The notes below the pieces were generated by a model. That model worked only from the letters and a program-made list of their open reading frames with translations. It was not told where the DNA came from and ran no database searches. Below, piece by piece: positions 1 through 45,091 of a stretch of 64,000 nt of DNA. The stretch is from an uncultured Methanosarcinales archaeon (lineage in GTDB: Archaea > Nanobdellota > Nanobdellia > Woesearchaeales > GW2011-AR15): contig CAZEKF010000001.1 in assembly GCA_964512765.1 (NCBI GenBank), forward strand, positions 66,366 through 130,365. Direction: 5' to 3'. How positions within the stretch are numbered: the first letter of the stretch is position 1; the number at the start of each line of letters is the position of its first letter. The translations under genes were made by a program, and so were the position numbers.

Positions 1-1415
1 ATAACATTATACTGAACCTTCCAGAAGTCGGCTCTCCAAAACAAAAAAAGTTGCCGTTTAATGAAAGGTTAAAATGGACTTTGATAGTTCTTGTTTTATT
101 TTTCGTGCTAGGAATGATACCGTTATGGCCACTTGGCCAGAACACATTAGCACAGTTTGAATATTTATCAATTATTTTAGGCGCGGAGTTTGGCTCACTA
201 TTATCTTTAGGTATTGGACCTATTGTTACAGGGTCTATTATTTTACAGTTGCTTAACGGAGCAGGAATATTAAAGTTTGACTTAACATCTCATGAAGGCA
301 AACAAAGATACCAAGGAATACAAAAACTAGTATCCTTATTTTTCATTATATTCGAAGCTATTATTTACGTTTTCATGGGCGGGATTTCAGTGCCGGCAGG
401 AATAGCGTCTATGTTTCAGATGCAGTTATTACTTGTTTTCCAGTTATTTTTGGGTGGTTTAATTGTATTGTTCATGGACGAGATTGTAAGCAAATGGGGG
501 TTTGGCTCAGGAATTAGTTTGTTCATAGCAGCAGGCATTAGTAAACAAATTTTCATTAGACTGTTTTCATTTACAGATACAGTAGGTAACATGTTTTGGG
601 AAACATCATTCCAAGGACCTGTGGTAGGTCAATTATGGGGCACGATTGGTTCTTTGACAACAGGAGATGGTCAAGGTGCGTTAATAGGTATTGTTACAAT
701 TGCTGCGACATTCATCGTATTTGCAATTGCTGTTTATTCGCAGGCAATGAAGATTGAAATTCCATTGTCTTTTGGTAGAGTTAGAGGGCATGGTATTAGA
801 TGGCCTTTGCAGTTTATTTATACAAGTAACATGCCAGTTATCTTAGTTGCGTCATTGTTTGCAACATTACAGTTATGGGTTAGATTGTTGCAGAACTGGA
901 CAGGGGGTAATCCTTTACCTATATTGGGCGGGTTTGCACAAGGTAATGTTCCAGTAGGTTTAATGGCGGTTTTACAAGGACCAAACTTAGTACAAGCCAT
1001 GATCCAAAGCGGCGGCCAATGGTCAATCATTGCACCAGTGTTGTTTAACTCACTTATTTACATTATATTAATGATCGGCGGCGCGGTTTTATTTTCAATA
1101 TTCTGGGTGCAAACTTCGGGTCAAGATTCTAAAAGTTTAGCAGAACAAATAATGTCGTCAGGACTGCAAATACCTGGGTTTAGAAAAGATAAACGTATCC
1201 TACAACGGATCCTGGACAGGTACATCATGCCGCTTACTGTAATGGGTGGACTAGTGGTTGGATTTTTAGCAGCAACCGCAGATTTAATGGGTGCACTGTC
1301 TCGAGGAACAGGAATTTTACTTACTGTCATGATTGTGTATAAACTGTACGAAGACATTGCACGTGAGCACATGTACGATATGAACCCAATGGTTAGAAAA
1401 TTCATGGGGAAATAG
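1..1415 (+). CDS. secY: Preprotein translocase subunit SecY (5'-partial; the reading frame is open back to window position 3)
   Basis: 10-TM profile. In-frame upstream translation NIILNLPEVGSPKQKKLPFNERLKW gives the conserved SecY N-terminus (LPEV). The TTG start at 51 in the ORF track is an artefact of the window edge. Confidence 0.85.
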   Translation, partial: NIILNLPEVGSPKQKKLPFNERLKWTLIVLVLFFVLGMIPLWPLGQNTLAQFEYLSIILGAEFGSLLSLGIGPIVTGSIILQLLNGAGILKFDLTSHEGKQRYQGIQKLVSLFFIIFEAIIYVFMGGISVPAGIASMFQMQLLLVFQLFLGGLIVLFMDEIVSKWGFGSGISLFIAAGISKQIFIRLFSFTDTVGNMFWETSFQGPVVGQLWGTIGSLTTGDGQGALIGIVTIAATFIVFAIAVYSQAMKIEIPLSFGRVRGHGIRWPLQFIYTSNMPVILVASLFATLQLWVRLLQNWTGGNPLPILGGFAQGNVPVGLMAVLQGPNLVQAMIQSGGQWSIIAPVLFNSLIYIILMIGGAVLFSIFWVQTSGQDSKSLAEQIMSSGLQIPGFRKDKRILQRILDRYIMPLTVMGGLVVGFLAATADLMGALSRGTGILLTVMIVYKLYEDIAREHMYDMNPMVRKFMGK

Positions 1416-12076: not shown

Positions 12077-13712
12077 TTTTTATAATAATATAACCTTCTT
12101 TATCATAGACTAATTTGAAATTGTAATTTGTAATATAGCTGTTAGCGAACAAATAATTTACTTGAGTAATTTCCTGAGCGATGTTTTGGAACATAATGTA
12201 ATCAAAATCTAATATACTAAGTTCATTATCTGGTTCGCCATATTCTTTATAGTTCCACCATGATTTTTCATACCTTCTAGTTGCTCTTAATGTGTTGCCT
12301 GCCCAGTCACCGTTAAATTCTAACGGAGTTTGATTAGTCTGGATGTATTGATTGTACAATCTTTGCATTTCTTGCATTGTGATTATGGCAGTGATCCTTT
12401 TAGAGTACATGAACTCTGACTGAAACACACTACCGAAAAATAGCACTTTTTCTGATTTATCAGCGTTATCGTGTATCCAGTTATAAGCTATCCATTCTTG
12501 ATTGGATATATGTTCACCCTGCATTTGTTTGGTTAGAGAAATATGCTGTGGAAGAGCAATTAAAATAACTGCAAGGAACAAGATTAATGTTGGGACAAGA
12601 TTATTTTTTAGTTTTCTTAAAATAAAATAATAAACAGCGTATGCTATAGTTGGATAGAGAATAAAAGGAGTTAATGCCCTGACTCTACTAAAATAATGCG
12701 GTTCCTGAACAATTATTTGTAACAAATATGTTACCAAGAAAAAATATATTGTAGTTATTATCCAAATTCTATATTTTTTATTGTTAATTATTAATTGAAC
12801 AAGCCCAATTACGAAGATTACAAGGAGAATCATAGGAATAAAGAACAAATCTGGAAATACGATCCCACCCATATATTCTCTGGTGAACCATAGATTTCTT
12901 AAACCAAAAAAACCAAAACTATATTGAGAACCGCCTTGAGCTCCCCATAAGAATAAAAATCTTGGTAGTAATGTTATAATTCCTAGTAACGGTATTAGAC
13001 CAATCATTAAAGATTCTTTAATTAATTTTTTTATGTCTTTGAGGTTTTTTGTGATTATCTTGTAACCAACAATAACACAAGGTATGAATAATATTCCAAG
13101 ATCTTGTGGATGTAATAAAAGAATTGAGGACAAACACAAACTCATGAAAACCAAAGTCCAAGATTCTTGTTTTTTCATGTATTTAATAAAAAGCCAAAGG
13201 AAGGTTAATAAAAATAAGTAACCAGCAACCTGGATCCAGATTCCGATGTATAAAGTGTATAACCAGACATTGACAGGCATTGGCAAAATACTTAATGATC
13301 CGGCTAGAATAGCAATTTTTTCATTTTCAAATACTTCTTTTGTGATTAAATATACAAGAATCACGAAAAATGCTTGTGATATGCAAATCAGGAAATAAAA
13401 CGTTGCCCAGGCAGGCACTCCTGAAAATAAAGTTAAAATTGCACTGTTTATGTAATATAATGGTGGTTGAGAATTGAGAGCTTTTTCCTGGCCCATTGAT
13501 ATGTAAGAATCAAAATAATTCCAGTGTTCAGTGTCAACAATACCTTCAACCATTAAAGCATGGTAAAACGCGTCCGCTGCCTTTAAATTACCAGGATGTG
13601 TTAATGGAAGTTTATCAATGTTCAAATAAAAAACCATGGCTAAAGCAAAGAACATTAAAACAATATATTCTAATTTGAATTTTTTACTTAACATCACTTG
13701 AAATAAAACCAA
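12066..13712 (-). CDS. Polytopic membrane protein, GT-C-like glycosyltransferase candidate
   Basis: 548 aa: a TM bundle plus a C-terminal soluble domain. Third paralogous architecture in a row. Confidence 0.4.
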   Translation of the reverse strand: MVLFQVMLSKKFKLEYIVLMFFALAMVFYLNIDKLPLTHPGNLKAADAFYHALMVEGIVDTEHWNYFDSYISMGQEKALNSQPPLYYINSAILTLFSGVPAWATFYFLICISQAFFVILVYLITKEVFENEKIAILAGSLSILPMPVNVWLYTLYIGIWIQVAGYLFLLTFLWLFIKYMKKQESWTLVFMSLCLSSILLLHPQDLGILFIPCVIVGYKIITKNLKDIKKLIKESLMIGLIPLLGIITLLPRFLFLWGAQGGSQYSFGFFGLRNLWFTREYMGGIVFPDLFFIPMILLVIFVIGLVQLIINNKKYRIWIITTIYFFLVTYLLQIIVQEPHYFSRVRALTPFILYPTIAYAVYYFILRKLKNNLVPTLILFLAVILIALPQHISLTKQMQGEHISNQEWIAYNWIHDNADKSEKVLFFGSVFQSEFMYSKRITAIITMQEMQRLYNQYIQTNQTPLEFNGDWAGNTLRATRRYEKSWWNYKEYGEPDNELSILDFDYIMFQNIAQEITQVNYLFANSYITNYNFKLVYDKEGYIIIKNEN

Positions 13713-31538: not shown

Positions 31539-33266
31539 TTGGTTGGAATGTTTGTGGAAGTCAGAGCCAAAAATATCAAAAAAATGTTACACTCAATTAA
31601 ATCAAGATTTGATCCCTCTTTATTACCTAGATATATTCCTATATACAGTAGAGAAGATCCTCTTTTTCAATTAATTGATGATTTACCTCATGCACTTGAT
31701 GAAATTCTTTCAAATGAGCAACAAGTAATTGAAAACATACTAGAACTACGTAAAATAGGAGAGGATGCGTCTGAACTTGAAACAGAGTTACGAAAAAGAG
31801 TTTTTGTGTCAGATGATACATCTGATCAGTATGTGTTGTGTAGGTTATTTGCAGATGCTTTTTTAAGGTACAGAAAAGATGGTAGGAATTTTTTTAGAGA
31901 TCTTGCAGAATCTAGTAAAGGTTTTTTCAGCTCAAAACGAGGTTTCTCAAAGGGACAGGTTGAAACTATAAGATATATTACAGTTTTAGGGATGTCAAAA
32001 GCAAACGGACATTTTGAAGAACAATCTCGATTGATGATACCTGTGGATAAGTTTGGTAATGTGCCTAAATTAAATATTTTACTTGAACAGAGGATACAAG
32101 AAACAGGGCGTGCAATTAATTATGCAGACTTAATTTATTCACACCATGATGAGACTTTTGATGATCAAGGATATTTATTAGGCCCTGATGGTAAACGACA
32201 AATTCTTTTGCAAGTTGGTGAGGCAGTTATGTTTACACCTAGGCTTACTGAATACAAAAAAGAAAAGATAATTAGGTCACTTGTAAAAAATTTAGCAAGA
32301 TCAACGGTATACAGTGGGAACAAAGGCACAATTTCAAATTCAAAAATAACTGCTTTATGTAGAGAACTTGAACAGATAATTAATATAGGTGAAGGAAGAA
32401 GTTATGACATATTATACGATGCGTTTTATGCTACTGTTGAGCGAACTTTGAATATTGGAGATTTAATTAGTCCAGAGAGAGTGGGATTTTTGAATGGAAA
32501 TTCTGTTTTTAAACCCTATTTATGCACACCAGGAAACTTTCCAAGTTTTATCAAAGAACTTGAAAGATTAGTTTCAGATTTCATATCTCTACCTATAGGA
32601 TATGGTGCTTGGGGTTGGAAAGGAGTATCTTTTGTTCCAAAGCTCTTGATTACCACATATTTTGATGAAATAGTTACACATGATGAAAAAGATCTTAGAG
32701 AATATTTAAGAGAAAGAGGTATTAAAGGAAAATCTGGTGAATATGAAAGAAGAGATTTAAGAGATCTGCGTCGTGCAACCTTTTTGACTTGGAGCGAACA
32801 CATAGGTCCAATTACAGATGATGATAATCTACCTGTAAGAGATAAGAAAGGCGAAGAGATTGCCTTAGCTTTGTTCGCTTATCACCATGGTTTGGATACA
32901 GGTGAATTAATTGAATTGATTCAAGGAAACCGTGAATTGGTAATACCAAGATCATCAGAGTTTGGACTAATATCTGACTGGACAAATAAGAAGAATTTTC
33001 AATATCGTATGGGTGATAGACGTAAACCAAATGGATATGGTGCCTTGAATACAACTGTATTGGGCTTACCTGGCTCTGCAGAAGTAGTTTACAAAACAAA
33101 TGTAGATGACGCAAGATCATTTTGTTTAGAAGAACAAACACACAGGAGCTATATCAGAGAGAGAGAAGCGATAAAAGACTTCTTACTTGAGGAAAGAAAA
33201 GTAATTACACCTCAAGAGTATTATGCATTACAAATGGTACTTTCTCCGAACCAAGTTGTACTTTAA
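31539..33266 (+). CDS. Large hypothetical cytoplasmic protein (575 aa)
   Basis: Long ORF with native codon usage. I do not recognise the domains. The true start is possibly an internal Met. Confidence 0.3.
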   Translation: MVGMFVEVRAKNIKKMLHSIKSRFDPSLLPRYIPIYSREDPLFQLIDDLPHALDEILSNEQQVIENILELRKIGEDASELETELRKRVFVSDDTSDQYVLCRLFADAFLRYRKDGRNFFRDLAESSKGFFSSKRGFSKGQVETIRYITVLGMSKANGHFEEQSRLMIPVDKFGNVPKLNILLEQRIQETGRAINYADLIYSHHDETFDDQGYLLGPDGKRQILLQVGEAVMFTPRLTEYKKEKIIRSLVKNLARSTVYSGNKGTISNSKITALCRELEQIINIGEGRSYDILYDAFYATVERTLNIGDLISPERVGFLNGNSVFKPYLCTPGNFPSFIKELERLVSDFISLPIGYGAWGWKGVSFVPKLLITTYFDEIVTHDEKDLREYLRERGIKGKSGEYERRDLRDLRRATFLTWSEHIGPITDDDNLPVRDKKGEEIALALFAYHHGLDTGELIELIQGNRELVIPRSSEFGLISDWTNKKNFQYRMGDRRKPNGYGALNTTVLGLPGSAEVVYKTNVDDARSFCLEEQTHRSYIREREAIKDFLLEERKVITPQEYYALQMVLSPNQVVL

Positions 33267-33719
33267 CTAATTGGAAGATCTCCTCTCCTTCTGTACATAA
33301 TTAAACAATTTTTTATTAGAAATCTTACCGCAACCAAGGTAATCTTCTTTGTTTTTGATTATAACGAACCCGTTTAAGTTAGATTTTACCTCGAAATCTT
33401 CACCACTCATCCATCTCTTAGTTTCTGTATACTTTAATTCAAGAACATTCTTTTTAGCAATCGGACCTATTATTTGTGAACCTTCAATACTCAACCTAAC
33501 TTCTTTTTTATCATATACAACACCAAAATAGAGTCCTAATGAATTAACTCTTAACTCATCCAGGTTAACTTTCGAAACGTCTTTATTTAGGATAAACAGT
33601 TTGTTTTTAGTGTTCATAAAAACTTCATAATTGAAACTAAAATCACAATTAAACTGTTCATTAATTAGTTTTTCAATTCTTTTTTTTTCTTTTGAATTTA
33701 ATATTTTAAGTTGTTGCAT
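33267..33719 (-). CDS. Small RNA-binding protein with a PUA-like C-terminus (Nip7-like candidate)
   Basis: 150 aa. C-terminal GFVIIKNKEDYLGCGKI resembles PUA. Confidence 0.35.
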   Translation of the reverse strand: MQQLKILNSKEKKRIEKLINEQFNCDFSFNYEVFMNTKNKLFILNKDVSKVNLDELRVNSLGLYFGVVYDKKEVRLSIEGSQIIGPIAKKNVLELKYTETKRWMSGEDFEVKSNLNGFVIIKNKEDYLGCGKISNKKLFNYVQKERRSSN

Positions 33720-33762
33720 TTTTTTGATTAAATTTAAAAACTTACAAAAGGTTATTTATATT

Positions 33763-34404
33763 ATGAAAAAGCTGCTGTTATTATTAATTTTGTTGTTCTC
33801 TCTTAATATAGTAATAGCAGAGTCTGTTCAGTATGGGAAAGTTAAGTTAACTGTTGTTAATCGAGCACCAAGAATTACTTCTTTGAACATATTGCCTGAA
33901 GAACCTTATTATGATTCTATGTTAGAGTGTAATGCGATTGTTGAGGACGAGTCTCCTGAGACAGTTACATTTGTGTATAAATGGTATAAAAATAATGTAT
34001 TATTAGAAGAAACAAGCAAATATCTTACTGATATAATAGATAATGATAACATTAGATGTTCAGTAACACCAACTGACAAATACGATGAAATAGGTAACAC
34101 AGAAACAGCTCAAACAACAATCTTAGAAAGTCCAGTAAGAGTCAAGGTCATTAAACCTGTTCTTAACATAGTAGGAATTCAAGTTAGTGCCAAAGATCTG
34201 AAACAAAGCACAAGTATGCAAGCAATAACAGGTATGGTGACAGGAACTAATAGTAGTTCTGATATCACTGTAGTGTTCTTATTAGGTATTTTTGTAATAA
34301 TTCTTGTAGGTTTAAATTTAACAGGTTTTGTAATACATCTTAGAAGAAAAAAATCTGTTAAATCCCCCAAACAGGGTTTTCTTTCCGCATCATACCAGCA
34401 ATAG
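33763..34404 (+). CDS. Secreted type-I membrane protein (signal peptide, ectodomain, C-terminal TM)
   Basis: MKKLLLLLILLFSLNIVIA signal peptide. C-terminal helix ITVVFLLGIFVIILVGL followed by HLRRKK. Start set at ATG 33763, in frame with track ORF 33631. Confidence 0.45.
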   Translation: MKKLLLLLILLFSLNIVIAESVQYGKVKLTVVNRAPRITSLNILPEEPYYDSMLECNAIVEDESPETVTFVYKWYKNNVLLEETSKYLTDIIDNDNIRCSVTPTDKYDEIGNTETAQTTILESPVRVKVIKPVLNIVGIQVSAKDLKQSTSMQAITGMVTGTNSSSDITVVFLLGIFVIILVGLNLTGFVIHLRRKKSVKSPKQGFLSASYQQ

Positions 34405-36109
34405 TTTTCAAAACTTCAATCTCACCTTTGCTTAAGAATTTCATTAATTTTTTCAGTTTTCTAAAATCATCTTCAGGAATATAACTATATAGAATATCTC
34501 GTTCTTTTATTTGTCTGCCTACAGTAACATCAGTGATAGAAATTGCTAACTGTTTACCTTTTGTTGCGGACTGAACATTTTCTTTTTCAAGTTGCATGCT
34601 TTTAACAGTACCCAATGCTTTGCCGTCTTTCATTACTCTCGTGCCTGTCTGAATCTTACCTTCTAGAATATCACAGCCAATTATGGCAGGGTTATTTTGC
34701 CTGAAAGTATGATTAAACATAAATTCAAACTTACACGGTCTTACTAATTCATCTAATGCTTTTGCTTCTAACAAAGCTTTTTGTTGCTCTTGCCATTGCT
34801 CTAATTCTTCAATTATTTTATAAATGATGTCTGAAGTAATTATTTTAACTTTCTCACTTCCAACTATGCCTTGTTCTCTCTCTACATTAAACCCTAATAT
34901 AACAGCTTGCAACGGATCCTTTTCAAAGTTAGACTCTGCGTCAACAATATCTTTTTTAGTAATAATGCCTATACTTGCTTTTCTGACAGGTATATTTTTT
35001 TCTTTTAATAAAAAAGTTAATGCTTCTAATGATCCAAGCGTATCTGCTTTTATTATTACTCCAGAACTTTCAGTTTCTATCATTACTTCTTGGACTTCTT
35101 TTTGAATTTCGTCGATAACTTTGTTTTTAATATCTTTTGTGTAACTTTGCAAAGGCATACCTGCAATAACTTCTTCAACATCTGGGGCGCTAATTTTTAC
35201 ACCTGTTGCAGCAACAACTTGTTTTTCTCTTTTAAACTTAGTTTTTTTGTCACGCATTTCTTTTAGTGGTAATGGACATAACAATGCCTTAACTCTTGTT
35301 TCAATAGGTTTTTCTAATCCTCCAATTATTAATTTATCATTTGTGTTCAGAATTCCATCGTAAATAATAACATCCAAAGTTTTTCCTAGCCCTGTGGATT
35401 CTTTAACTTCTAGAACAGTGCCTTTTGCGTTTCCTTTAACATGTAATTTTAAAGATTCTTCAAGATATTTTTGTGCTAATCCAATCAATACCATTAATAG
35501 TTCAGGAATGCCGTCTCCATTTATTGCTGAAGTAGGTATGATTGCAACTTGTTTAGTGTGATCTTCAATTCTGTCAAATCGTTCAGATTCAAAACCTAAT
35601 TCTGATAGTTTAGCTACAATCTCATACAGTTTAGTTTCGATATTTTCCTGGACAAAAGGATCTTGGTTGTTCAGATTTTTTATTAGAAATTTTTCAGTTT
35701 GCCTATATCCTGGTATAAGATCGATTTTGTTAGCTGCAATCACAAACGGTGTTTTGCTGTTTTTTAGGATTTCAATACTTTCAAATGTCTGTGGTTTTAG
35801 GCCTTCATTAATATCAATGACCAATATGGCAATATCTGCAATGTTACCACCACGTTTTCTTAATGTTGTAAAAGCTGCGTGACCTGGCGTGTCCAGAAGT
35901 AACAATCCAGGCACAGTAATTTTAATTTGCTTTAGCAATTGTCCACAAATATTTTTTATAGTTTCAATTGGAATAATTGAAGCACCTATTGCTTGGGTAA
36001 TGCCTCCAGATTCGCCTAATTGAACAGCACTCCCTCTAATCTTATCAAGTAACTTTGTTTTTCCATGATCCACATGACCAATTAATCCACAAATGACTTT
36101 TCTTAGCAT
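34358..36109 (-). CDS. infB: Translation initiation factor aIF5B (IF-2 homolog)
   Basis: GHVDHGKT G1 motif, DTPGH, NKID. Four-domain GTPase of 583 aa. Size argues against an intein. Confidence 0.9.
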   Translation of the reverse strand: MLRKVICGLIGHVDHGKTKLLDKIRGSAVQLGESGGITQAIGASIIPIETIKNICGQLLKQIKITVPGLLLLDTPGHAAFTTLRKRGGNIADIAILVIDINEGLKPQTFESIEILKNSKTPFVIAANKIDLIPGYRQTEKFLIKNLNNQDPFVQENIETKLYEIVAKLSELGFESERFDRIEDHTKQVAIIPTSAINGDGIPELLMVLIGLAQKYLEESLKLHVKGNAKGTVLEVKESTGLGKTLDVIIYDGILNTNDKLIIGGLEKPIETRVKALLCPLPLKEMRDKKTKFKREKQVVAATGVKISAPDVEEVIAGMPLQSYTKDIKNKVIDEIQKEVQEVMIETESSGVIIKADTLGSLEALTFLLKEKNIPVRKASIGIITKKDIVDAESNFEKDPLQAVILGFNVEREQGIVGSEKVKIITSDIIYKIIEELEQWQEQQKALLEAKALDELVRPCKFEFMFNHTFRQNNPAIIGCDILEGKIQTGTRVMKDGKALGTVKSMQLEKENVQSATKGKQLAISITDVTVGRQIKERDILYSYIPEDDFRKLKKLMKFLSKGEIEVLKTIAGMMRKENPVWGI

Positions 36110-36110
36110 C

Positions 36111-37271
36111 TTAAATTAATAATCTCTTATCTTTATTTGATAACCATTTATTAGTTTTTATTTTTAAATTACCTCTTTTATATCTAGGTATGAATTTATA
36201 AAAATTTATTAATATATCTTTTAATGATTGTTTTGAGAGTGCTCCTCTACACTTTAATAATAATTTAAGTTGGTTTTCATGTCTTTTTAATTCAAAACCA
36301 ATTTTCGAGTAGAATGTCATTAAGTCCTTAAGTCTAGTAATTAAGATAGTGTATGTAGCAGTTATTTTTCCAAGAGAACTAACATATACTTTTGAAAAAT
36401 AAGGTTGAACAATGATACCAAAACTTTTTAGTATTTGCACTTCGTTTTTAGTCAATTCAGGTACATTTGAATTAAGACTACTTAAGCAATGTTTATCTAA
36501 ATCCTGTTTATAATATACTTTTCTCATTTTCTTATGTTTAAGACCAATTTTGACTGAATTATTTCTATTCAATTGTATTCTAGGACTAAGATAATATTTG
36601 TTTTTAACTTTTGTGACAAAGGCATAAATTGATGCTTCTTCACTTATGTTTGCTTGCCACCATATCTTATGGAATTGTTTATTATTTAAAATGTAATTAG
36701 GAATCTTTAAATCTGCACTGTTTTTATTTCCATAAATCCTATTTTTTATAAAATGCTTTGCAAATATAAGTGGGAAATATAAACATCTTGTTTGGTCTCT
36801 CGTATCAATTCTTTCTTTTAGCGTAATATTTCCTATTAACTTTTTTGAATTTACTCTTATAATGTCCAATATTTCATGGTCTTTATTTGTATATTCAACA
36901 ATTCTATGTCTTATTCGTCCTTCGTTAATCATTCCAACAAATAATCTTACACCAGCATTACAATTAAAATTCAAAGGCAATTTTGGATCTTTGATTTCAT
37001 CAATAAATTTGATGCCTTTTGTTATTTTAGAAATTGAAAAATTACAGAAATTTCCAATTCTTTGAAATGTTAAAGACTTGATATATTTTTGATTGATAAA
37101 TTTTTTCCAGGTTCTTAACTCTATACCTATATTTTTCGAGATAGGAGTATTTAAACTTGATTTTGTTTTTACTTTTGCTATTTTGATTACATATTTGATA
37201 TAATTTTTCTTAGCAATAATCTTAGAAAACGGACTATCTGAGATATTTACAATATTTTTTCCATTATTCAT
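36111..37271 (-). CDS. Paralog of 40392..41405: degenerate LAGLIDADG-like homing-endonuclease-type protein
   Basis: Shares the N-terminal KSSLN and NxNAG blocks and a C-terminal basic helical tail with 40392..41405. Shares the upstream GTCCAGTG repeats. Possible degenerate motif RLFVGMINEG. Confidence 0.3.
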   Translation of the reverse strand: MNNGKNIVNISDSPFSKIIAKKNYIKYVIKIAKVKTKSSLNTPISKNIGIELRTWKKFINQKYIKSLTFQRIGNFCNFSISKITKGIKFIDEIKDPKLPLNFNCNAGVRLFVGMINEGRIRHRIVEYTNKDHEILDIIRVNSKKLIGNITLKERIDTRDQTRCLYFPLIFAKHFIKNRIYGNKNSADLKIPNYILNNKQFHKIWWQANISEEASIYAFVTKVKNKYYLSPRIQLNRNNSVKIGLKHKKMRKVYYKQDLDKHCLSSLNSNVPELTKNEVQILKSFGIIVQPYFSKVYVSSLGKITATYTILITRLKDLMTFYSKIGFELKRHENQLKLLLKCRGALSKQSLKDILINFYKFIPRYKRGNLKIKTNKWLSNKDKRLLI

Positions 37272-37340
37272 TTAAATCACGATTATTATGCTTATTTTGG
37301 ATTTGTAAATGAGTAATAAAGAAATAACCATTTAAATACC

Positions 37341-37423
37341 TCACACAAGAATGTCTAGTGTGTCCAGTGGATGTTTGATAGCAGCTAGCAGAGGACAAAT
37401 GTAACATTTGAAAGTGTCCAGTG
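37341..37423 (-). promoter_or_regulatory. Upstream repeat element (3x GTC[C/T]AGTG) with a TATA-like box, 5' of 36111..37271
   Basis: TCACACAAGAATGTCTAGTGTGTCCAGTGG plus a downstream GTGTCCAGTG. A near-identical 21-mer occurs at 41460. Confidence 0.4.
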
Positions 37424-37478
37424 ACAACCAAAATTCAATAACTTTAAATATAATTACTACTTTTGAATAGTTCATAAA

Positions 37479-37850
37479 TTGGAGGAGAGGTATATGAAGA
37501 AATTATTAACAACAATATCATTGTTTATCTTGGTTATTGCAAGTGTTTCAGCAGGATATGTTGGTCATATTTATCCAGATAGATTAGAGGCAAAGGAAGG
37601 CAACATTTTAGTAACTTTTTTTAACCATGGTAATTCAAAGGTTAAAGATCTTAAAGCAACAGCATACATACCAGATTTAGATGTTTATCATAAGTCAGGA
37701 GACTTTAATTTGAGGTCAAAAACATCTGGACGAGTATACATAATAGTTGAAATACCACACGACACTGAACCAGATTATTACCCAGTTATTGTTACTCTAC
37801 GAAACAATGATGTTAGAGAAAAAACACATACTTGGTTAGAAGTATATTAA
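37479..37850 (+). CDS. Small secreted protein
   Basis: MKKLLTTISLFILVIASVSAG signal peptide. GGAGG ribosome-binding site 7 nt upstream. Confidence 0.4.
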   Translation: MEERYMKKLLTTISLFILVIASVSAGYVGHIYPDRLEAKEGNILVTFFNHGNSKVKDLKATAYIPDLDVYHKSGDFNLRSKTSGRVYIIVEIPHDTEPDYYPVIVTLRNNDVREKTHTWLEVY

Positions 37851-37879
37851 TAAACTAAATCCTTTTTCTTTTTTTATAT

Positions 37880-38932
37880 ATGGTCGTTACTGAAGAATCT
37901 ATTAACTTAAACATTGTAAAAGAAAAAAAAATTTCTAAAAAACTCCCAGTATTTTACAATCCAATCATGAAACTTAACAGAGATATTTCTGTTTTGCTAC
38001 TTAATTCTATTCCAGACAAAAACATGCAAATAGCACTTCCATTAGCAGGGTCAGGTGTTCGTGGGATAAGGTTTCTTAAAGAACTTAGTAAAAATAAAAT
38101 TAAATCAATTGCATTTAATGATTATAAAACTTTATCAGACATTAAGAAAAACCTTAAATTAAATAATTTAGAAAAAGATAAAAGGATAAAGTTGTATAAC
38201 GCAGATGCTAACTTATTCTTGTTACAAAGTAAAGGTTTTGATTATATTGATATTGATCCTTTTGGTACTCCAAATCCTTTTTTAGAAAATTCTATTACGA
38301 GGTTGGCTAGAAAAGGGATTTTGGCAGTAACAGCCACAGACACAGCAGCGTTAGCAGGAAGTTCGGAAAAGGCATGCATAAGAAAATACTGGGCTAAACC
38401 TATGAGAAACGAGTTAATGCATGAAATTGGTATTAGAATATTGATCAGGAAAGTGCAGTTGATAGGTGCTCAGAATGATAAAGCACTAACACCAATATTT
38501 AGTTATTCAAAAGACCATTATTACAGGTTATTTTTCAGGTGCGAGAAAGGAAAACAAAAAGTTGATTCATTGTTAAAAAACCACAAATATTTGTTGTATA
38601 ATCCAAAAACAATGAAAAGAGAAGTTTCTGAGCATAACTATAAGAAAAATTATCAATACACAGGACCTTTGTGGGCAGAACAATTATGGGACAAGAAATT
38701 AGTTAGCAAAATGTATAAGAATTGTGATAAAAGTAATAAAAAACTGAGTGATTTGGTTTCAATTATTAAAGAAGAATGTAAAATTGGTACTGTTGGATTC
38801 TATGATTTACATAAAATAGCTAAATTAAAAGGTAAAGAAGTTCCAAAAATTGAAACCATATTGAATAAAAATACAACTAGAACACATTTCCTGGGCTGGG
38901 GGGTTAGGACCCAGCTTCAAAAATTGATTTAG
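37880..38932 (+). CDS. trm1: tRNA (guanine26-N2)-dimethyltransferase Trm1
   Basis: LPVFYNPIMKLNRDISV N-terminal Trm1 signature. SAM-MTase fold. 350 aa. Confidence 0.85.
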   Translation: MVVTEESINLNIVKEKKISKKLPVFYNPIMKLNRDISVLLLNSIPDKNMQIALPLAGSGVRGIRFLKELSKNKIKSIAFNDYKTLSDIKKNLKLNNLEKDKRIKLYNADANLFLLQSKGFDYIDIDPFGTPNPFLENSITRLARKGILAVTATDTAALAGSSEKACIRKYWAKPMRNELMHEIGIRILIRKVQLIGAQNDKALTPIFSYSKDHYYRLFFRCEKGKQKVDSLLKNHKYLLYNPKTMKREVSEHNYKKNYQYTGPLWAEQLWDKKLVSKMYKNCDKSNKKLSDLVSIIKEECKIGTVGFYDLHKIAKLKGKEVPKIETILNKNTTRTHFLGWGVRTQLQKLI

Positions 38933-39695
38933 TCCAACCACCAAAGAATTCTTGACCATTTAGTTTCCAGTTATTAACAGGAGAGTCAATGTGTAAATTT
39001 TCAGGAGGGCGTACATCTGTCCGTCCTTTATTTTTGTCTCTTATATATTCTTCCACAAGCCTGGTTGTATGATATTCAGGATGACCTAAATTGATTAAAA
39101 ATTTTTTATCACAACTTTCAAAAATATAATAGCCCGCATCCTGTGAATAAGCCAATAGGTTAATTATGCCTTTATTGCTTGTTTGTTCAAGAAGATTATC
39201 ATTTATTCCAGCATGTCTACTATGTGGACAATAAAATTCATCATCCAAATCTCTCATAATAATGTGTTTTGAATCAAGTTTGGTTGTTTTATAAATACCG
39301 AATAATTTTTTTTTAAACATAGTCTTTTTTATGTCAAGCAATTTTGCCAAAGCAAGGCCGCCCCAGCAAAGTCCTAAAGTTGAAGCATAATTTTTTCTTG
39401 CATAACCAAGTATTTTTTTTAGCTCTTCCCAATATGTGATTTTTTCAAACGGAATTTCTTCAACAGGAGCAGGTGAAAGTATGAGTCCTTGTAGTTTATC
39501 TTTAACATCTTCAAAATACTTGTAGCATTTTTTTAAATGCTCTTTATTACTGCTTGAATAACAATGATTCTTTAATCTGATAAATACAAGTGTAACTTTG
39601 AGTGAGGATTTGTTTAAAGGTACTAGTAAGTTATGTTCATATTCCTCAGCTTTCGGCATTAAATTAATTATGCCAATTTTTATTTCGTTAGTCAT
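38904..39695 (-). CDS. metA: Homoserine O-acyltransferase (MetA/HTS family)
   Basis: IINLMPK, GLILSPAPVE, CWGG, PHSRHAG and GHPEY blocks match MetA. Confidence 0.8.
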   Translation of the reverse strand: MTNEIKIGIINLMPKAEEYEHNLLVPLNKSSLKVTLVFIRLKNHCYSSSNKEHLKKCYKYFEDVKDKLQGLILSPAPVEEIPFEKITYWEELKKILGYARKNYASTLGLCWGGLALAKLLDIKKTMFKKKLFGIYKTTKLDSKHIIMRDLDDEFYCPHSRHAGINDNLLEQTSNKGIINLLAYSQDAGYYIFESCDKKFLINLGHPEYHTTRLVEEYIRDKNKGRTDVRPPENLHIDSPVNNWKLNGQEFFGGWTKSIFEAGS

Positions 39696-39900
39696 TGTGA
39701 TTTTTTTAATGCATGATTTATATCTTTAATAATGTCTTTTGAATGTTCAATCCCTATTGACAATCTAATTAATTCAGGTTTTATTCCACCAAATATCAAG
39801 TGTTCTTCAGTTAACTGACTGTGTGTTGTTGGATCTGGCCTTTGGCCAGCGTGTACAAATTTTGTTTGAATATCTAATTTTTTATTTTTTTAGTAGACAT
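39692..39900 (-). pseudogene. metY: Remnant of O-acetylhomoserine sulfhydrylase/cystathionine gamma-synthase (MetY/MetB family): frameshift plus large in-frame internal deletion
   Basis: Translation gives MSTKKIKN*, then (after a frameshift in an A-run) TKFVHAGQRPDPTTHSQLTEE (Cys/Met-metabolism PLP-enzyme N-terminus) fused directly to GGIKPELIRLSIGIEHSKDIIKDINHALKK (family C-terminus). Its TGA stop overlaps the metA ATG (ATGA). Confidence 0.5.
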
Positions 39901-40063
39901 ATTAATCACCTTTAATATTTTTTAAAGAAATTAAGAAAATCACTGAATGCTTCAACACATCATTAACATTTTAGAATTTATTAAACAGTAATTAAGCATT
40001 TTTACCTAGAAATCCCTTAATGATTTATAAAATATTTTGAAAAAATAATTCTAATAAGAATAA

Positions 40064-40342
40064 TTATCCAATAGCTCTTCTAACATCTGTTATTTCAACA
40101 GAATTAACTCCTTCAATACTATTAACGTCTTCTTCTAAAGGATCAGTTGCACCTTTAGCTTCATCCATAACAAACAATATTTTCACTGCTTTTAGACCAA
40201 AAGCAACAGGTTCTTGTTCAGTTTTATAATTGTCCATTTCTGTGAAAGACTTAATTTTGTCAAGAGCTTCTGATTCAACTTTTGCTAAGTCAATTTCAGG
40301 AGAATCAGGCATTATTTTCATAGTTACTACAACGTCTGCCAT
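40064..40342 (-). CDS. ef1b: Elongation factor 1-beta (aEF-1beta)
   Basis: MADVVVTMKIMPDSPEIDL...AFGLKAVKILFVMDE is a full-length match to the archaeal EF-1beta family. 92 aa. Confidence 0.85.
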   Translation of the reverse strand: MADVVVTMKIMPDSPEIDLAKVESEALDKIKSFTEMDNYKTEQEPVAFGLKAVKILFVMDEAKGATDPLEEDVNSIEGVNSVEITDVRRAIG

Positions 40343-40391
40343 TTTGTTAAAGGGATTAAATAGAGTTATTTAAATCTATCTTTTTAAAAAG

Positions 40392-41405
40392 TTATTGGTC
40401 TAAATATGATTCCAGTTTTTTTCTTTTGTAATCCATCAGTTTAATATGTTTATTAAATAATTTTAAGTTTGGTTTTGAAGTTATTCGGATAATATATTTA
40501 GAACATTTACCATATCTGTTCATATATGTGTTTGTTAAATAAGGACCTTGAACTTTAATACCCAACTTGTTTAGAAGTAGCTTGTCGATTTCCAGAATGC
40601 CTGAAGGAGCAGGAGTACCATTCTTTATTAAGGATGCTTGTTCTAATGTTATCTCCCTTTTTCCAACACATCCATCGTCATTGAAAGCTTTTGCAAGAAA
40701 CTCAGAAATTAATTCTTTGTCATCAATTTTTTCTAGGAAACTGAATGGTTGAAAATGGATTTTTATTTTGTATCCAGGAGTATAACCTATGGAGATCATT
40801 ATCTCACCTACTATGGTTGGCAAAGTTATGCGATAGATACCTTTTTTGTCTTTTTTAATTTCTCTTTTAAATTTCCCAAATAATATTTGAGAGTCACTAA
40901 GAAATTCCGAACATTCAGGTTTTGATTTATTTACATATCTAGGTTGTTTGTTGTCTTTTCCAATGCAACCGTCATGATAAAGATGACTTAAAAATCTCAT
41001 ACCTTCTTTTGTATTGAAACTTATGGGAAAAACAGGATAATATATTTTTTGTGAATGAGAACCACCACTTTTTATATAATATATGTTTTTTTCTAAATTC
41101 AATAATGTGAAAGTACCACATCCCGCATTTACCAAAAGATTCGATATCTTCTGAAGATTTGATAATGAAAAAGGGACTCTTGTGAATTGATCCCAAAGTT
41201 GAGTAAAACTAATATTAGAAATCCGAGACAAGTTTGTTATTGTCTCAAAGGTGTTAAGTGCACTTTTAAATATTATTTTTTTAAGTGGAGGTTTGAACTC
41301 AACATAAATGGATTCCGTATTGTTCAAATTTAAGGAGCTTTTCAAATCTCTTAAATGATATGTTCCCTTTTTTGTTGATCTTTTACTCTTTTTTCCAAAT
41401 TTCAT
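40392..41405 (-). mobile_element. Free-standing double-motif LAGLIDADG-type homing endonuclease gene (putative)
   Basis: Two LAGLIDADG-like motifs (LSHLYHDGCIGKD and LAKAFNDDGCVGKRE) about 100 aa apart. Basic C-terminal tail. Inserted between a Zn-ribbon gene and EF-1beta. Confidence 0.5.
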
Positions 41406-41458
41406 TTGAATCTTGATAAAACCCTATTCAATCTATGTAATTGTTTTTATTTATATAC

Positions 41459-41498
41459 TTCACACAAGAATGTCCAGTGGGTTTTTTGTCCAGTGGAG
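41459..41498 (-). promoter_or_regulatory. Upstream repeat element (2x GTCCAGTGG) with a TATA-like box, 5' of 40392..41405
   Basis: TTCACACAAGAATGTCCAGTGGGTTTTTTGTCCAGTGGAG. Shares a 21-mer with 37341..37361. TATATAAATAAAA lies between the repeats and the ATG. Confidence 0.4.
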
Positions 41499-41601
41499 TT
41501 ATAAAAACATAATTTGATAGTTGATTTCAACAAGAACAAAAATCAAATAAATTAGAGAAATAGAGTTATTATCAGACAAAAGTATGGGAATATGTTGTAG
41601 T

Positions 41602-41766
41602 TTAATTCGGGCCGTTAAAATTGCATGTAGGACAGGTATATTTTGCCACTGTTTTTCTACAGGTTAAACATCTAACTATTTGATATTTACCGCATTTCGG
41701 GCACATGAACTTAGCAGTGCCTTTCTGGTTAGTTATTTTTGTTTTACATGATATACATTCTTCCAT
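41602..41766 (-). CDS. Zn-ribbon RNA-binding protein (COG2888-like, translation-associated); not in the ORF track (54 aa)
   Basis: Manual translation MEECISCKTKITNQKGTAKFMCPKCGKYQIVRCLTCRKTVAKYTCPTCNFNGPN shows four CxxC pairs. This family is normally adjacent to EF-1beta. Confidence 0.65.
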   Translation of the reverse strand: MEECISCKTKITNQKGTAKFMCPKCGKYQIVRCLTCRKTVAKYTCPTCNFNGPN

Positions 41767-41816
41767 TGATCATCACTGAACTCAAGGATTAAATAAGAAT
41801 TTAAAAAACTTGTTAT

Positions 41817-42653
41817 TTATAGAGTGGTATAGTAATTTTGCATTAATAAAGCATCTTCTTCAATGTTCGGACTTTCTGCGATAACACAGCCTTTTATTTT
41901 GAATTCTTTCCAGATTTTTAACAAATCTTGGTAGTTCATGTCAGATTCTTCAAGTATTAAATGATTTCTTTCGCCTTTTTCACCATAATTAATACCCGAG
42001 AGGTGAATGTGCATGTTATCCAAACCATCTTTACCGAGGTATGATTCAATATCTAGTAATATTTGTCTGAATTCATCTTCAGTGTTGTATTTACTTGTTC
42101 TAGCATGTATGTGCGAGAAATCAAAGACAGGCATTACTTTTTCAAGTTCCTGGCTCATTTTTAATAGTTCAAGGTAACTACCGAACTGTGTTGCCTTACC
42201 TGTAGTTTCTGGCCGTATCCAGACATCAATCCCTTTGTTATCCAAATTTTCTTTAATTTTCTTAATCCCTTCTTTTATATTTTCATATACTTTACTTGGC
42301 TCTTGTTTTAAATAAAAACCTGGGTGAAAACATAATGACCAACCACCACACTCATGTAAGATTTCAGCAGATTTTTCAATCCTGTGCATGCTTGCATATT
42401 TTTTTGCAGGTTCAATTGCATTCAGGTTAATGTAATAAGGAGCATGGCAGGTTAAGAAAATGTTTTCTTTCTCTGCTCTTTTTTTAACTAAAGGTGCTTT
42501 TTCTTTACTTATGTTAACACTTCTTACAAACTCAAGTTCCATGCAATCCAGGCCAAGTTCTCTTACTCTTGAAATTCCGTTTGGAGTATTTGGAATTGTA
42601 GTGGATAAAGGAATGCCTGCAGTACCAAACAGTAACTTATCAGGAGATTTCAT
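41817..42653 (-). CDS. nfo: Endonuclease IV (AP endonuclease, xylose-isomerase-like TIM barrel)
   Basis: Conserved His/Glu metal ligands (HAPYYINL, HIHLSGINYGEKGERNHL). 278 aa. Confidence 0.75.
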   Translation of the reverse strand: MKSPDKLLFGTAGIPLSTTIPNTPNGISRVRELGLDCMELEFVRSVNISKEKAPLVKKRAEKENIFLTCHAPYYINLNAIEPAKKYASMHRIEKSAEILHECGGWSLCFHPGFYLKQEPSKVYENIKEGIKKIKENLDNKGIDVWIRPETTGKATQFGSYLELLKMSQELEKVMPVFDFSHIHARTSKYNTEDEFRQILLDIESYLGKDGLDNMHIHLSGINYGEKGERNHLILEESDMNYQDLLKIWKEFKIKGCVIAESPNIEEDALLMQNYYTTL

Positions 42654-42716
42654 CTAAATCAACGTAAAGAACCAATTGTTTTTATATGTTGTCTTAAATA
42701 AAAAAGAATAAAATAA

Positions 42717-44996
42717 TTAGCCGTAATAAACCGGCCTATTTTCTTTCATTTCTTTTCCGCGCGCAGCTTTAAATTGTTTAAGTAAGTCTTTATACGCTTC
42801 AGCAACGTCTTTTGTCACGCTCGGAGAAACTTTTTTCAAAGCATCTTCAAAATGTTTTTTATTGATCTTTTTAGCATCCATGTCTTTTCGTAATGCTAGC
42901 ATTGCAGATTCTCTGCATACTGCTTCAATGTCCGCGCCAACGTAACCATCTGTTTCTTTAGCAAGTTCTTTGATTTTCACATCTTTTGTTATTGGCATGC
43001 CTTTTATATGGATTTTAAAGATTTCTTCACGCGCTTTTTCAGTCGGTGCGGGAACTAAAACAATCCTGTCAAACCTACCAGGACGTAATAGTGCAGTGTC
43101 TACAATGTCTGGCCTGTTAGTTGCTGCTAATATCACAATATCGTCAAGTTCTATTAACCCGTCCATTTCTGTCAGTAGCTGGTTAACAACTCTTTCTGTC
43201 ACATGACTATCTGAACCAGCACCTCTTCTTGGAGCTAATGAATCAATTTCATCAAAGAAGATGATCGTTGGACTTGTTTGTCTAGCTTTCTCAAATATTT
43301 TTCTGACAGCTTTTTCAGATTCACCGACCCATTTACTTAACAGTTCAGGGCCTTTAACTAATATGAAATTAGATTTGCTTTCATTAGCAACAGCTTTCGC
43401 TAATAGTGTTTTACCAGAACCTGGAGGTCCGTATAACAAAATACCTTTTGGAGGTTTAATACCCATCCTTGTAAAGATTTGTGGATGTTTCAATGGCCAT
43501 TCAACAGCTTCTACTAATTCTTGCCTTACAGTATCAAGACCGCCAATATCGCCCCATTTTACATTAGGAACTTCAATCAAAACTTCTCGTAACGCACTCG
43601 GTCTCACGACTTTCAAAGCTTCAATAAAATCTTTTTTAGCTACGATTAATTTTTCAAGAACTTCCGTAGGAATAGGCTGGTCTTCTTCAAGTTTCATGTC
43701 AGGATATATACGTCTTAGTAATGTCATTGCAGCTTCTTTTGCTAATGCAGATAAGTCTGCACCAACAAAACCATGCGTTATCTCAGCAAATTGTTTTAAA
43801 CTAACACCTTTTGATAATGGCATGTTCCTTGTATGAATTTTTAAGATGTTCAATCTTCCTTCTACATCAGGAACGCCAATTTCAAGTTCTCGGTCAAATC
43901 TACCAGGCCGTCTTAACGCAGGGTCTAACTCATTTGGAATGTTTGTTGCACCAATCACAACAACTTTCCCTCTACTTTTCAGACCGTCCATTAAAGCAAG
44001 CATCTGTGCAACTACTCTTCTCTCAACTTCTCCTCTGCTTTCTTCTCTTTTTGAAGCAATTGCATCAATTTCATCAATAAAAATTATAGATGGCGCGTTT
44101 TTCTCAGCTTCTTCAAACTTTTTTCTTAGGTTTTCTTCACTTTGACCATAATATTTTGACATAATTTCTGGACCGTTTATTAAAATGAAATTAGCATGTG
44201 TTTCATTAGCAACAGCTTTTGCAAGTAAAGTTTTACCAGTACCTGGAGGACCGTGTAACAGAACACCTTTAGGTGGCTCTATACCAAGAGCTTCAAATAT
44301 CTCAGGATGTTTTAATGGTAATTCAACCATCTCTCTTATTTTGGTAATTTCTTCTTGTAATCCTCCAATATCTTCATACGTAACTTCCAGAACTTTTTCT
44401 TCGTCAACTTCAGTTGCTTCAGGGTTAAACTTAACTGCAGTTTGTTCAGTTATTAAAACAGCTTGTTTAGGGTCTGTACTAACAACAACAAATTTCAAAT
44501 CGCCTAATCCAAAACCCATTAAACTTTCGTCTAACATGTTAAAGAAATCATCACCAAATGTTGGGTTTGAAGACATTGCAGACCGTCTTCTTTTTGTGCC
44601 GCCTAATGATACAATATCACCTTTTGTTACAGCTCTTCCTAACAATCCTTGCTTGAAAATTACAGGATTTGCTCTAATAACAATACCTTTTCTTTGAGGT
44701 GCAATCATGACTTTCTTAGCTTCAATAACATTACCTTTTTTTATTGATACAATTTCGCCAATGCCTGCTTTTGCATTCCTTCTTATAAGACCGTCCATCC
44801 TAATAATGTTTAATCCAATATCACCAGGATATGCTCTGTCTGTGATTGCAACAGTTTTTCTTTCGCCCTTAATTTCAATTATATCGCCAGGCCTTATACC
44901 GAGCTCGTGCATAAAACTACTATCAATTCTTACAATACCTTTGTTAACATCATCCTGAATTGCTTCTGCAACTTTTAATTTTAATTCTTTGACCAT
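42717..44996 (-). CDS. cdc48: CDC48/VCP-like AAA+ ATPase (two AAA domains)
   Basis: N-terminal double-psi barrel. Two GPPGTGKT Walker A motifs, DEID Walker B motifs, second region of homology. 759 aa with no intein. Confidence 0.9.
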
Positions 44997-45091
44997 GATT
45001 AAATCACCTTTAACCTGAGATAAAACTTAAATGATAAATAAAGGTATCGGTGCATAAACTTAAATATAAAATGTTTTTTCCCTATTGAAGA

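Follow-up and report, generated by a model that had tools for sequence, protein, structure and literature searches.

The archaeal LAGLIDADG endonucleases characterised so far are encoded within inteins or rRNA introns. Free-standing homing endonucleases are familiar from phages, for example the seg and mob genes of T4 and F-CphI next to psbA, and we know of no promoter box that is conserved across a superfamily of these phage genes. Links between endonucleases and gene regulation have been described in other systems: I-TevI acts as its own repressor, WhiA controls its own gene, WhiA-type regulators have lost the LAGLIDADG catalytic acidic residues, and the HO endonuclease is an intein-derived LAGLIDADG protein that is now a free-standing and tightly regulated host gene (PMC3384342). 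In this study, two free-standing genes, here termed A and B, were analysed in a 64-kb AT-rich archaeal segment of contig CAZEKF010000001.1 (the window, that is, the whole stretch of DNA studied). Gene A (36111..37271, minus strand) encodes 386 aa with an N-terminal helical, helix-turn-helix (HTH)-like domain, two LAGLIDADG domains and a C-terminal extension; gene B (40392..41405, minus strand) encodes 337 aa with an N-terminal helical domain, weakly similar to Xre/HipB-like HTH domains, and two LAGLIDADG domains. With middling confidence, we regard both genes as free-standing HTH-LAGLIDADG endonuclease cassettes that have intein-like ancestry, have long been resident at fixed sites and each carry a controlled promoter of their own.

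An earlier note on this DNA, made by a reader of the sequence, had named both open reading frames (ORFs) and called them LAGLIDADG-like. The two ORFs exist as described, and the translation of gene B carries the two quoted motifs, LSHLYHDGCIG and LAKAFNDDGCVG. AlphaFold2 (AF2) models built from family alignments gave predicted local distance difference test (pLDDT) scores of 91.3 for gene B and 92.9 for gene A, and the top Foldseek matches in the Protein Data Bank (PDB) were all LAGLIDADG proteins, so the assignment was borne out. The matches of gene B were the TliVMA intein (E 1.4e-8), PI-PfuI, I-Tsp061I, I-DmoI and WhiA; those of gene A were the TliVMA intein, I-Tsp061I, I-OnuI and I-DmoI, with I-AniI also matched. 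Foldseek probability for the two models was 1.00 to TliVMA, PI-PfuI, I-Tsp061I, I-DmoI, I-OnuI and PI-SceI, and the PDB matches are of the intron- or intein-encoded kind. Using sequence alone, a 40-member superfamily profile recovered TliVMA (4.9e-9), PI-PfuI (1.8e-5) and PI-PkoII (6e-4). In Pfam, LAGLIDADG_3 (cut-off 22.5 bits) scored above the threshold for gene B (26.3 bits) and below it for gene A (14.3 bits), and was matched at E up to 0.1 by 10 of 16 B members and 7 of 13 A members; NCBIfam gave a weak match of gene B to the intein-containing aIF-2 model PRK14845 (E 0.0015). The models confidently predict a single-chain, two-motif LAGLIDADG fold for both proteins, nearest to archaeal intein and intron endonucleases.

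The active-site residues were placed by alignment and not by superposition. The motif ends of gene B read YHDG (D145/G146) and FNDDG (D244/G245), with D145 and D244 invariant in 16 sequences, and those of gene A read NEGR (E117/G118) and SEEAS (E211/E212), with E117, G118, E211 and E212 invariant in 13 sequences. Across the sample of 40 superfamily members, D145 reaches at least 90% conservation and G146 never varies, and mean column identity is 62-64% in the A and B families. The N-terminal helical domain spans about 100-130 residues and has weak HipB/Xre-like similarity (E 0.07-0.09). At the other end, gene A has an extension of about 45 aa that forms three helices in the AF2 model, and the C-terminal extension of longer superfamily members is weakly winged-helix-turn-helix (wHTH)-like (E 0.005; Pfam HTH_24 at 23.3 bits in member P0040). 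The N-terminal HTH and C-terminal winged-helix assignments are both weak. No Intein_splicing or Hint domain matched A, B or their family members, and the ORFs start at ATG and lie between genes.

Genes A and B align by BLASTP with 23% identity over 319 aa (E 8e-4). Comparison of the two family profiles by hhalign gave a probability of 97.6% (E 4.6e-12, 286 columns), and cross-family hidden Markov model (HMM) matches ranged from 1e-6 to 3e-10. The paralogy proposed earlier is upheld by the profile comparison, and judged from sequence, A and B are true paralogues, members of two sister families. The KSSLN and NxNAG blocks, which had been offered as common to the two proteins, do not occupy homologous positions; they remained unaligned in both the profile-profile and the MAFFT alignments and are coincidental. 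Family HMMs revealed no further A or B paralogue in the window and the loci collected at that stage.

The superfamily to which the two families belong is large. The B-family profile was searched against 1.84 billion representative proteins (clusters at 50% identity), and at least 553 clusters or proteins matched at E up to 1e-3, with 267 at E up to 1e-10; the earlier description as a small gene family is therefore not supported. Most of the listed matches are 330-460 aa long and cover almost the whole profile, which indicates free-standing proteins of the same architecture rather than inteins. A word-index protein search with the superfamily alignment added almost no further members. Every sampled member is annotated only as hypothetical and no description of the family was found in the literature searched; this is a large, unannotated and undescribed DPANN superfamily of free-standing LAGLIDADG-type genes. 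Four sampled members of other subfamilies adjoin DNA ligase, carB, an OB-fold gene and Nre, which argues against a shared role specific to translation factors.

Both genes are preceded by the same promoter element. The octamer GTCCAGTG occurs four times in the 64 kb (at 37362, 37416, 41472 and 41488), always upstream of A or B, against a chance expectation of 0.71, and none of 100 shuffles reached four copies; the 20-mer CACTRGACATTCTTGTGTGA has exactly two copies, at 37341..37360 and 41460..41479 (0.01 expected). The shared upstream repeats with TATA-like boxes reported in the earlier note are thus real, and the octamer is commoner in the window than expected by chance. It forms part of a 9-mer box, CACTNGACA on the coding strand. 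A TATA box (TATWTAAA) follows 13-15 nt downstream of the box, and the spacer between the two holds a GTRAG element, similar to the B recognition element (BRE), directly before the TATA box. On the minus strand, the core promoter of gene A (37330..37369) comprises the TATA-like box ATTTAAATA (37330..37338), a 13-nt spacer with the BRE-like GTGAGG and two boxes, CACTAGACA at 37352..37360 and CACTGGACA at 37361..37369. A distal third box CACTGGACA (37415..37423, minus strand) lies between the A promoter and a divergent 123-aa gene (37479..37850, plus strand). The promoter of gene B (41450..41495, minus strand) has the TATA-like box TTTATATA (41450..41457), a 13-nt spacer with the BRE-like GTGAAG and two boxes, CACTGGACA at 41471..41479 and a second at 41487..41495, 16 nt further upstream than the first.

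The same box and TATA architecture precedes A or B homologues at nine loci from relatives (L005, L006, L007, L009, L010, L014, L016, L024 and L025), where the box is single, in tandem (7, 9 or 16 nt apart) or, once, inverted. It is also present upstream of two distant subfamily members at unrelated loci: in L031 the promoter reads CACTTGACACACTTGACA, 13 nt and TTTTAAATA, and in L028/L029 the box CACTGGACACTGGAC follows immediately after a NUDIX gene. The exact pattern CACTSGACA was found nowhere else in 25 loci and the window. A promoter model, R1, was trained on nine sites outside the window and searched against about 250 kb on both strands; it recovered the promoters of gene B (41447..41482, E 1e-5) and gene A (37330..37362, E 5.8e-4) and that of L028, scored the distal third box of gene A at E 1.7 when taken alone, and found no other site at E up to 10. 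In the sequence examined, the box-plus-TATA promoter is exclusive to this gene family, in agreement with the earlier suggestion that these genes have a promoter or operator element of their own. The box is probably a regulatory site, either an operator or an upstream activating site.

The box is missing from L001, L004, L008, L012, L020-23, L026 and L030, which include inverted B genes. Box-less inverted B homologues are directly preceded by a small ribbon-helix-helix (RHH) gene in L021 (about 3860..3970) and L023 (about 40..180; PF07878, E 7e-5), and by a TrmB-family HTH gene in L001 (5216..5959); the arrangement is reminiscent of nucleases that are preceded by a controller or antitoxin gene. 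A second conserved upstream element, TCAACTATCAAATTATG (41508..41524, minus strand), was noticed by eye in the printed upstream sequences; it lies 15-40 nt upstream of the box, and 13-14 nt of it are common to the B promoters of L004, L016 and L025. Downstream of the TATA box, B leaders share the segment AATTACATAG..TT.AA. The divergent-type A leaders (L007 5950..6003, L009 4944..5000, L010 4950..5000) end in a hairpin whose 3' arm holds the Shine-Dalgarno sequence GGAGG; in these three sequences, for which the automatic alignment is off by one, the stems differ and stay complementary and the loop AAACTRRTGA is conserved, and the hairpin may serve translational control. The idea that the box mimics a putative target was raised by likenesses such as that between CTTGGACATGT, in the P-loop codons of aIF5B, and ACTGGACATGT. 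It was dropped, because B and further subfamilies use this box at sites unrelated to each other, and because the P-loop sequences of genomes with and without A differ in no consistent way.

The two genes are tied to particular places. Gene A abuts the 5' end of aIF5B, the archaeal IF-2/eIF5B GTPase (34358..36109, minus strand; Pfam GTP_EFTU, IF-2 and GTP_EFTU_D4), in seven of seven distinct A loci, co-oriented in four and divergent in three (L007, L009 and L010). In the window, the stop codon of gene A (36111..36113) and the aIF5B start at 36109 are separated by 1 nt, as reported earlier; the spacing is +1 nt in L006, -7 nt in L012 and -11 nt in L008, so the coupling noted for this DNA recurs, and aIF5B is probably co-transcribed or translationally coupled with gene A. 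Wherever both flanks of gene B can be seen, it sits between a Zn-ribbon gene and EF-1beta. The Zn-ribbon protein (41602..41766, minus strand) is HVO_2753-like and matches PF07754 with 53.4 bits, a family called Ribosomal_aS21 in a different Pfam release; its gene forms the upstream half of the pair that B splits, and EF-1beta (40064..40342, minus strand; Pfam EF1_GNE) begins 49 nt downstream of gene B. The B loci are co-oriented in the window, L004, L014, L016 and L025, and inverted in L001-3, L018 and L020-22, where the B stop lies a few nucleotides from the Zn-ribbon stop. In L005/L015, B adjoins EF-1beta and an IS110 transposase gene stands upstream instead of the Zn-ribbon gene; in L005 this IS110-family gene occupies 87..695, the usual place of the Zn-ribbon gene. 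The claim that B splits a conserved pair is matched by B-less L007 and L010, where 2 and 12 nt separate the Zn-ribbon gene from EF-1beta.

All homologues come from uncultured DPANN archaea (Nanoarchaeota, Woesearchaeota or Aenigmarchaeota where named) and all are annotated as hypothetical; one homologue-bearing metagenome-assembled genome is labelled 'uncultured Methanosarcinales'. The earlier note had held that the same genes at the same positions in all relatives would speak against mobility, and this is half the case. The positions are indeed the same, as A and B occupy the same two genomic sites in relatives at about 40-55% protein identity, but the genes are missing in some: B is present and A absent in L005, L014 and L025, and A is present and B absent in L007 and L010. 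Relatives without A or B have box-free promoters of their own for aIF5B and EF-1beta. In the window, EF-1beta has its own TATA-like box TTTAAATAA at about 40368..40376, some 26-34 nt upstream of its ATG, and a TATA box after the B stop is conserved in L004, L014, L016 and L025.

One A locus has an unusual neighbour. In L008 (7010..7110; JAHIEG010000008.1, the same contig as L013, from assembly GCA_018901655.1), 32 nt, TAGATTAAGTTTATGCTTATTTAACCGAAAAT, break up the aIF5B gene that follows the A homologue; they stand after codon 13, between GH and VDHGKT of the P-loop. Removal of the 32 nt restores the reading frame and the consensus N-terminus. Restoration of the frame was one element of the definition of a bulge-helix-bulge intron used here, the other being a 4-bp central helix flanked by two 3-nt bulges that hold the splice sites. 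In the minimum-free-energy fold, GUGGUC pairs with GACCAC as an outer helix and UCGG with CCGA as a 4-bp helix. The 5' site carries a 3-nt bulge, ACA, and the 3' site falls in a 7-nt loop, so that the motif is a relaxed, bulge-helix-bulge-like one, with a fold z-score of only -1.2 in one assembly. The insertion could be a mini-intron that marks the target site of A, a pseudogene or an assembly error.

Under the endonuclease-cassette reading favoured here, A and B would cut DNA site-specifically, each targeting its own site in the unoccupied state, A being anchored at the 5' flank of aIF5B and B in the spacer of 2-12 nt that separates the Zn-ribbon gene from EF-1beta. A LAGLIDADG homing endonuclease cuts both strands at a long target of about 14-40 bp; the candidate targets here are the empty Zn-ribbon/EF-1beta junction of the L007/L010 type and the aIF5B 5' region of the A-less L005/L014 type. 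Each protein has an N-terminal helical domain of putative DNA-binding type, some members also a C-terminal one, and their closest relatives are archaeal intein-borne endonuclease domains. Entry would have occurred long ago by double-strand-break repair; since then the genes would have persisted mostly by vertical descent, aided by linkage to essential genes, with A now the likely upstream cistron of aIF5B in four lineages. The box would most likely act as an operator or upstream activating site that holds a potentially harmful nuclease under tight control, and its binder may be the A or B protein itself. In box-less inverted B loci, a small RHH or TrmB-type HTH gene lies directly upstream instead.

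The earlier note had leaned towards a mobile or selfish gene family, which, if read as a currently active and recently spreading element, is improbable. Patchy presence among relatives, either orientation at the same site, highly conserved neighbours and the likeness to intein endonucleases would suit such an element, but the phylogeny of A is congruent with that of aIF5B. Pairwise identities of A and aIF5B are correlated (Spearman 0.91, 21 pairs), as are those of aIF5B and TRM, a gene of unlinked function (Spearman 0.85); since A tracks aIF5B and aIF5B tracks TRM, inheritance looks vertical over a deep divergence (about 40-65% identity). The corresponding correlation between B and EF-1beta (Spearman 0.19) is uninformative for a 92-aa protein. 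The simplest history starts from an ancestral A, which was inverted once in the L007/L009/L010 clade and was lost in L014 and in the L005 plus L025 lineage. The genes are also present in all arrangements shown for the window's population, which occurs, for example, in the JGI samples 3300009374 and 3300009375 and from which 23 contigs were read: four of four have B adjoining EF-1beta, and four of four have the start of a 386-aa gene, the length of A, at the position of A. An apparent split B allele in this population (L035) proved to be a scaffold gap of 10 N. No degraded A or B remnants were found in the empty sites of L005, L014, L025, L007 and L010, where the 'gaps' of L014 and L025 read as parts of other genes that are encoded on the opposite strand, and no terminal repeats were found. 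No near-identical copies were seen in divergent hosts, the best non-self matches being 57-62% identical; nor were extra copies found in the window and loci, and a scan of viral contigs detected no B relatives. Recent or current mobility is not supported by these observations. Several of them also weigh against our own reading, because vertical descent, the lack of remnants, the single population arrangement and the lack of viral copies fit a domesticated gene equally well. Three further points count on the same side: cleavage by A and B, its target and the binder of the box are predictions; the HipB-like assignment of the N-terminal domain is weak (E about 0.07-0.09); and B proteins retain this domain even where the box is missing, so that box binding cannot be its sole role.

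The main rival is that A and B are domesticated WhiA-like regulators that no longer cut, bind CACTNGACA, and regulate themselves together with aIF5B (A) or EF-1beta (B). This is possible though rather unlikely. Strict adjacency to the same gene, co-oriented or divergent, is what local regulators typically show; the co-oriented loci couple aIF5B to A, and in the divergent L007, L009 and L010 the box lies between the TATA boxes of A and aIF5B. A regulator would likewise agree with vertical inheritance and the strong conservation within the families, with a conserved box exclusive to these promoters, and with the place among the structural matches of WhiA, which controls its own gene (PMC3384342). 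However, the catalytic acidic residues that WhiA has lost are invariant in A and B, the presumed target genes have box-free promoters of their own in close relatives without A or B, EF-1beta has its own TATA box right after B, and the box-bearing members of other subfamilies sit at unrelated genes. Far less credible is an RNA-binding, maturase-like role on neighbouring transcripts, such as processing of the aIF5B pre-mRNA. LAGLIDADG maturases are known, I-AniI is among the matches of gene A, and the A-bearing L008 appears to have an intervening sequence in aIF5B; such a sequence is seen, however, in only one of seven A loci, the catalytic residues are kept, and no Rfam family was matched in 33000..45000 at E up to 0.1, nor was a structured RNA found there. 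Bulge-helix-bulge introns are, moreover, cut by the splicing endonuclease and need no maturase.

A bolder variant, which we consider unlikely, takes CACTNGACA as the cognate operator of the whole superfamily, with the HTH-LAGLIDADG proteins acting as transcription factors on their own promoters. The superfamily would then be an archaeal counterpart of WhiA or I-TevI, and the A family would control the essential aIF5B. As a linked possibility, A might work with the endonuclease-less 32-nt bulge-helix-bulge mini-intron of L008, a case of 'collaborative homing' in an archaeal protein-coding gene.

The surroundings of the two genes contain further features. The order on the minus strand of the window is Cdc48, an AP endonuclease, the Zn-ribbon gene, gene B, EF-1beta, a short gene remnant and metA/HTS; two plus-strand genes, TRM and that of the 123-aa protein, follow, and then gene A and aIF5B on the minus strand. 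The remnant (39697..39880, minus strand), of 61 codons, immediately precedes metA/HTS. In its last 46 residues it matches the end of PLP enzymes of Cys/Met metabolism (PF01053, E 3.2e-10), its N-terminal TKFVHAGQ stretch resembles by eye the start of the same enzymes, and it looks like an internally deleted metY/metB-like pseudogene. On the contig of the L006 A homologue, the eRF1 gene (12263..13203) carries an intein with HTH_3 and LAGLIDADG_3 domains, so that this organism has a further endonuclease within a translation-factor gene. Within the first 25 codons of aIF5B, the P-loop departs from GHVDHGKT in L006 (GHVDSGKT) and L025 (GNVDAGKT).

The two families are each tied to one conserved gene and have long been retained in very small genomes. 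Active nucleases would provide new long-target specificities and a natural case of a selfish gene that gained stability as the cistron ahead of an essential gene; regulators would show that a domesticated endonuclease fold can serve as a transcription factor in archaea. In both cases, the box offers a directly testable DNA-protein pair.

Among known systems, the archaeal intein endonucleases TliVMA, PI-PfuI and PI-PkoII are the best structural and sequence matches of A and B, with which they share two LAGLIDADG domains, acidic motif ends and, as predicted for A and B, highly conserved informational genes as targets. Unlike inteins, A and B lack Hint and splicing domains; each is an ORF of its own, located between genes and with its own promoter, and carries an extra N-terminal helical domain. 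I-DmoI and I-Tsp061I share the monomeric double-motif fold (TM-scores 0.55-0.65 on the target), and D20/E117 of I-DmoI correspond to the acidic residues of A and B (PMC3384342); in contrast to these enzymes, A and B do not lie inside an rRNA intron, are about twice as long and have added terminal domains. WhiA/DUF199 proteins likewise fuse a LAGLIDADG core to an HTH and match B structurally, but their catalytic residues are lost, their HTH is C-terminal and the family is bacterial, whereas A and B retain invariant catalytic residues, have an N-terminal helical domain and are archaeal. The HO endonuclease, like A and B, is a LAGLIDADG protein encoded by a free-standing gene, with the intein-like ancestry and controlled expression that are proposed for A and B; it differs in retaining intein-like domains and in serving mating-type switching, a role not indicated for A or B. 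Free-standing phage endonucleases belong to the GIY-YIG, HNH and EndoVII families and are phage genes, whereas A and B are cellular archaeal genes with deep and largely vertical histories. The arrangement is nonetheless similar, as A and B also stand alone, each with a promoter of its own, next to a conserved gene or between two of them, and F-CphI resembles L008 in that a free-standing gene lies beside a host gene with an endonuclease-less intron, a putative one in L008. Finally, the autorepression of I-TevI follows the same logic as that proposed here for the box of A and B.

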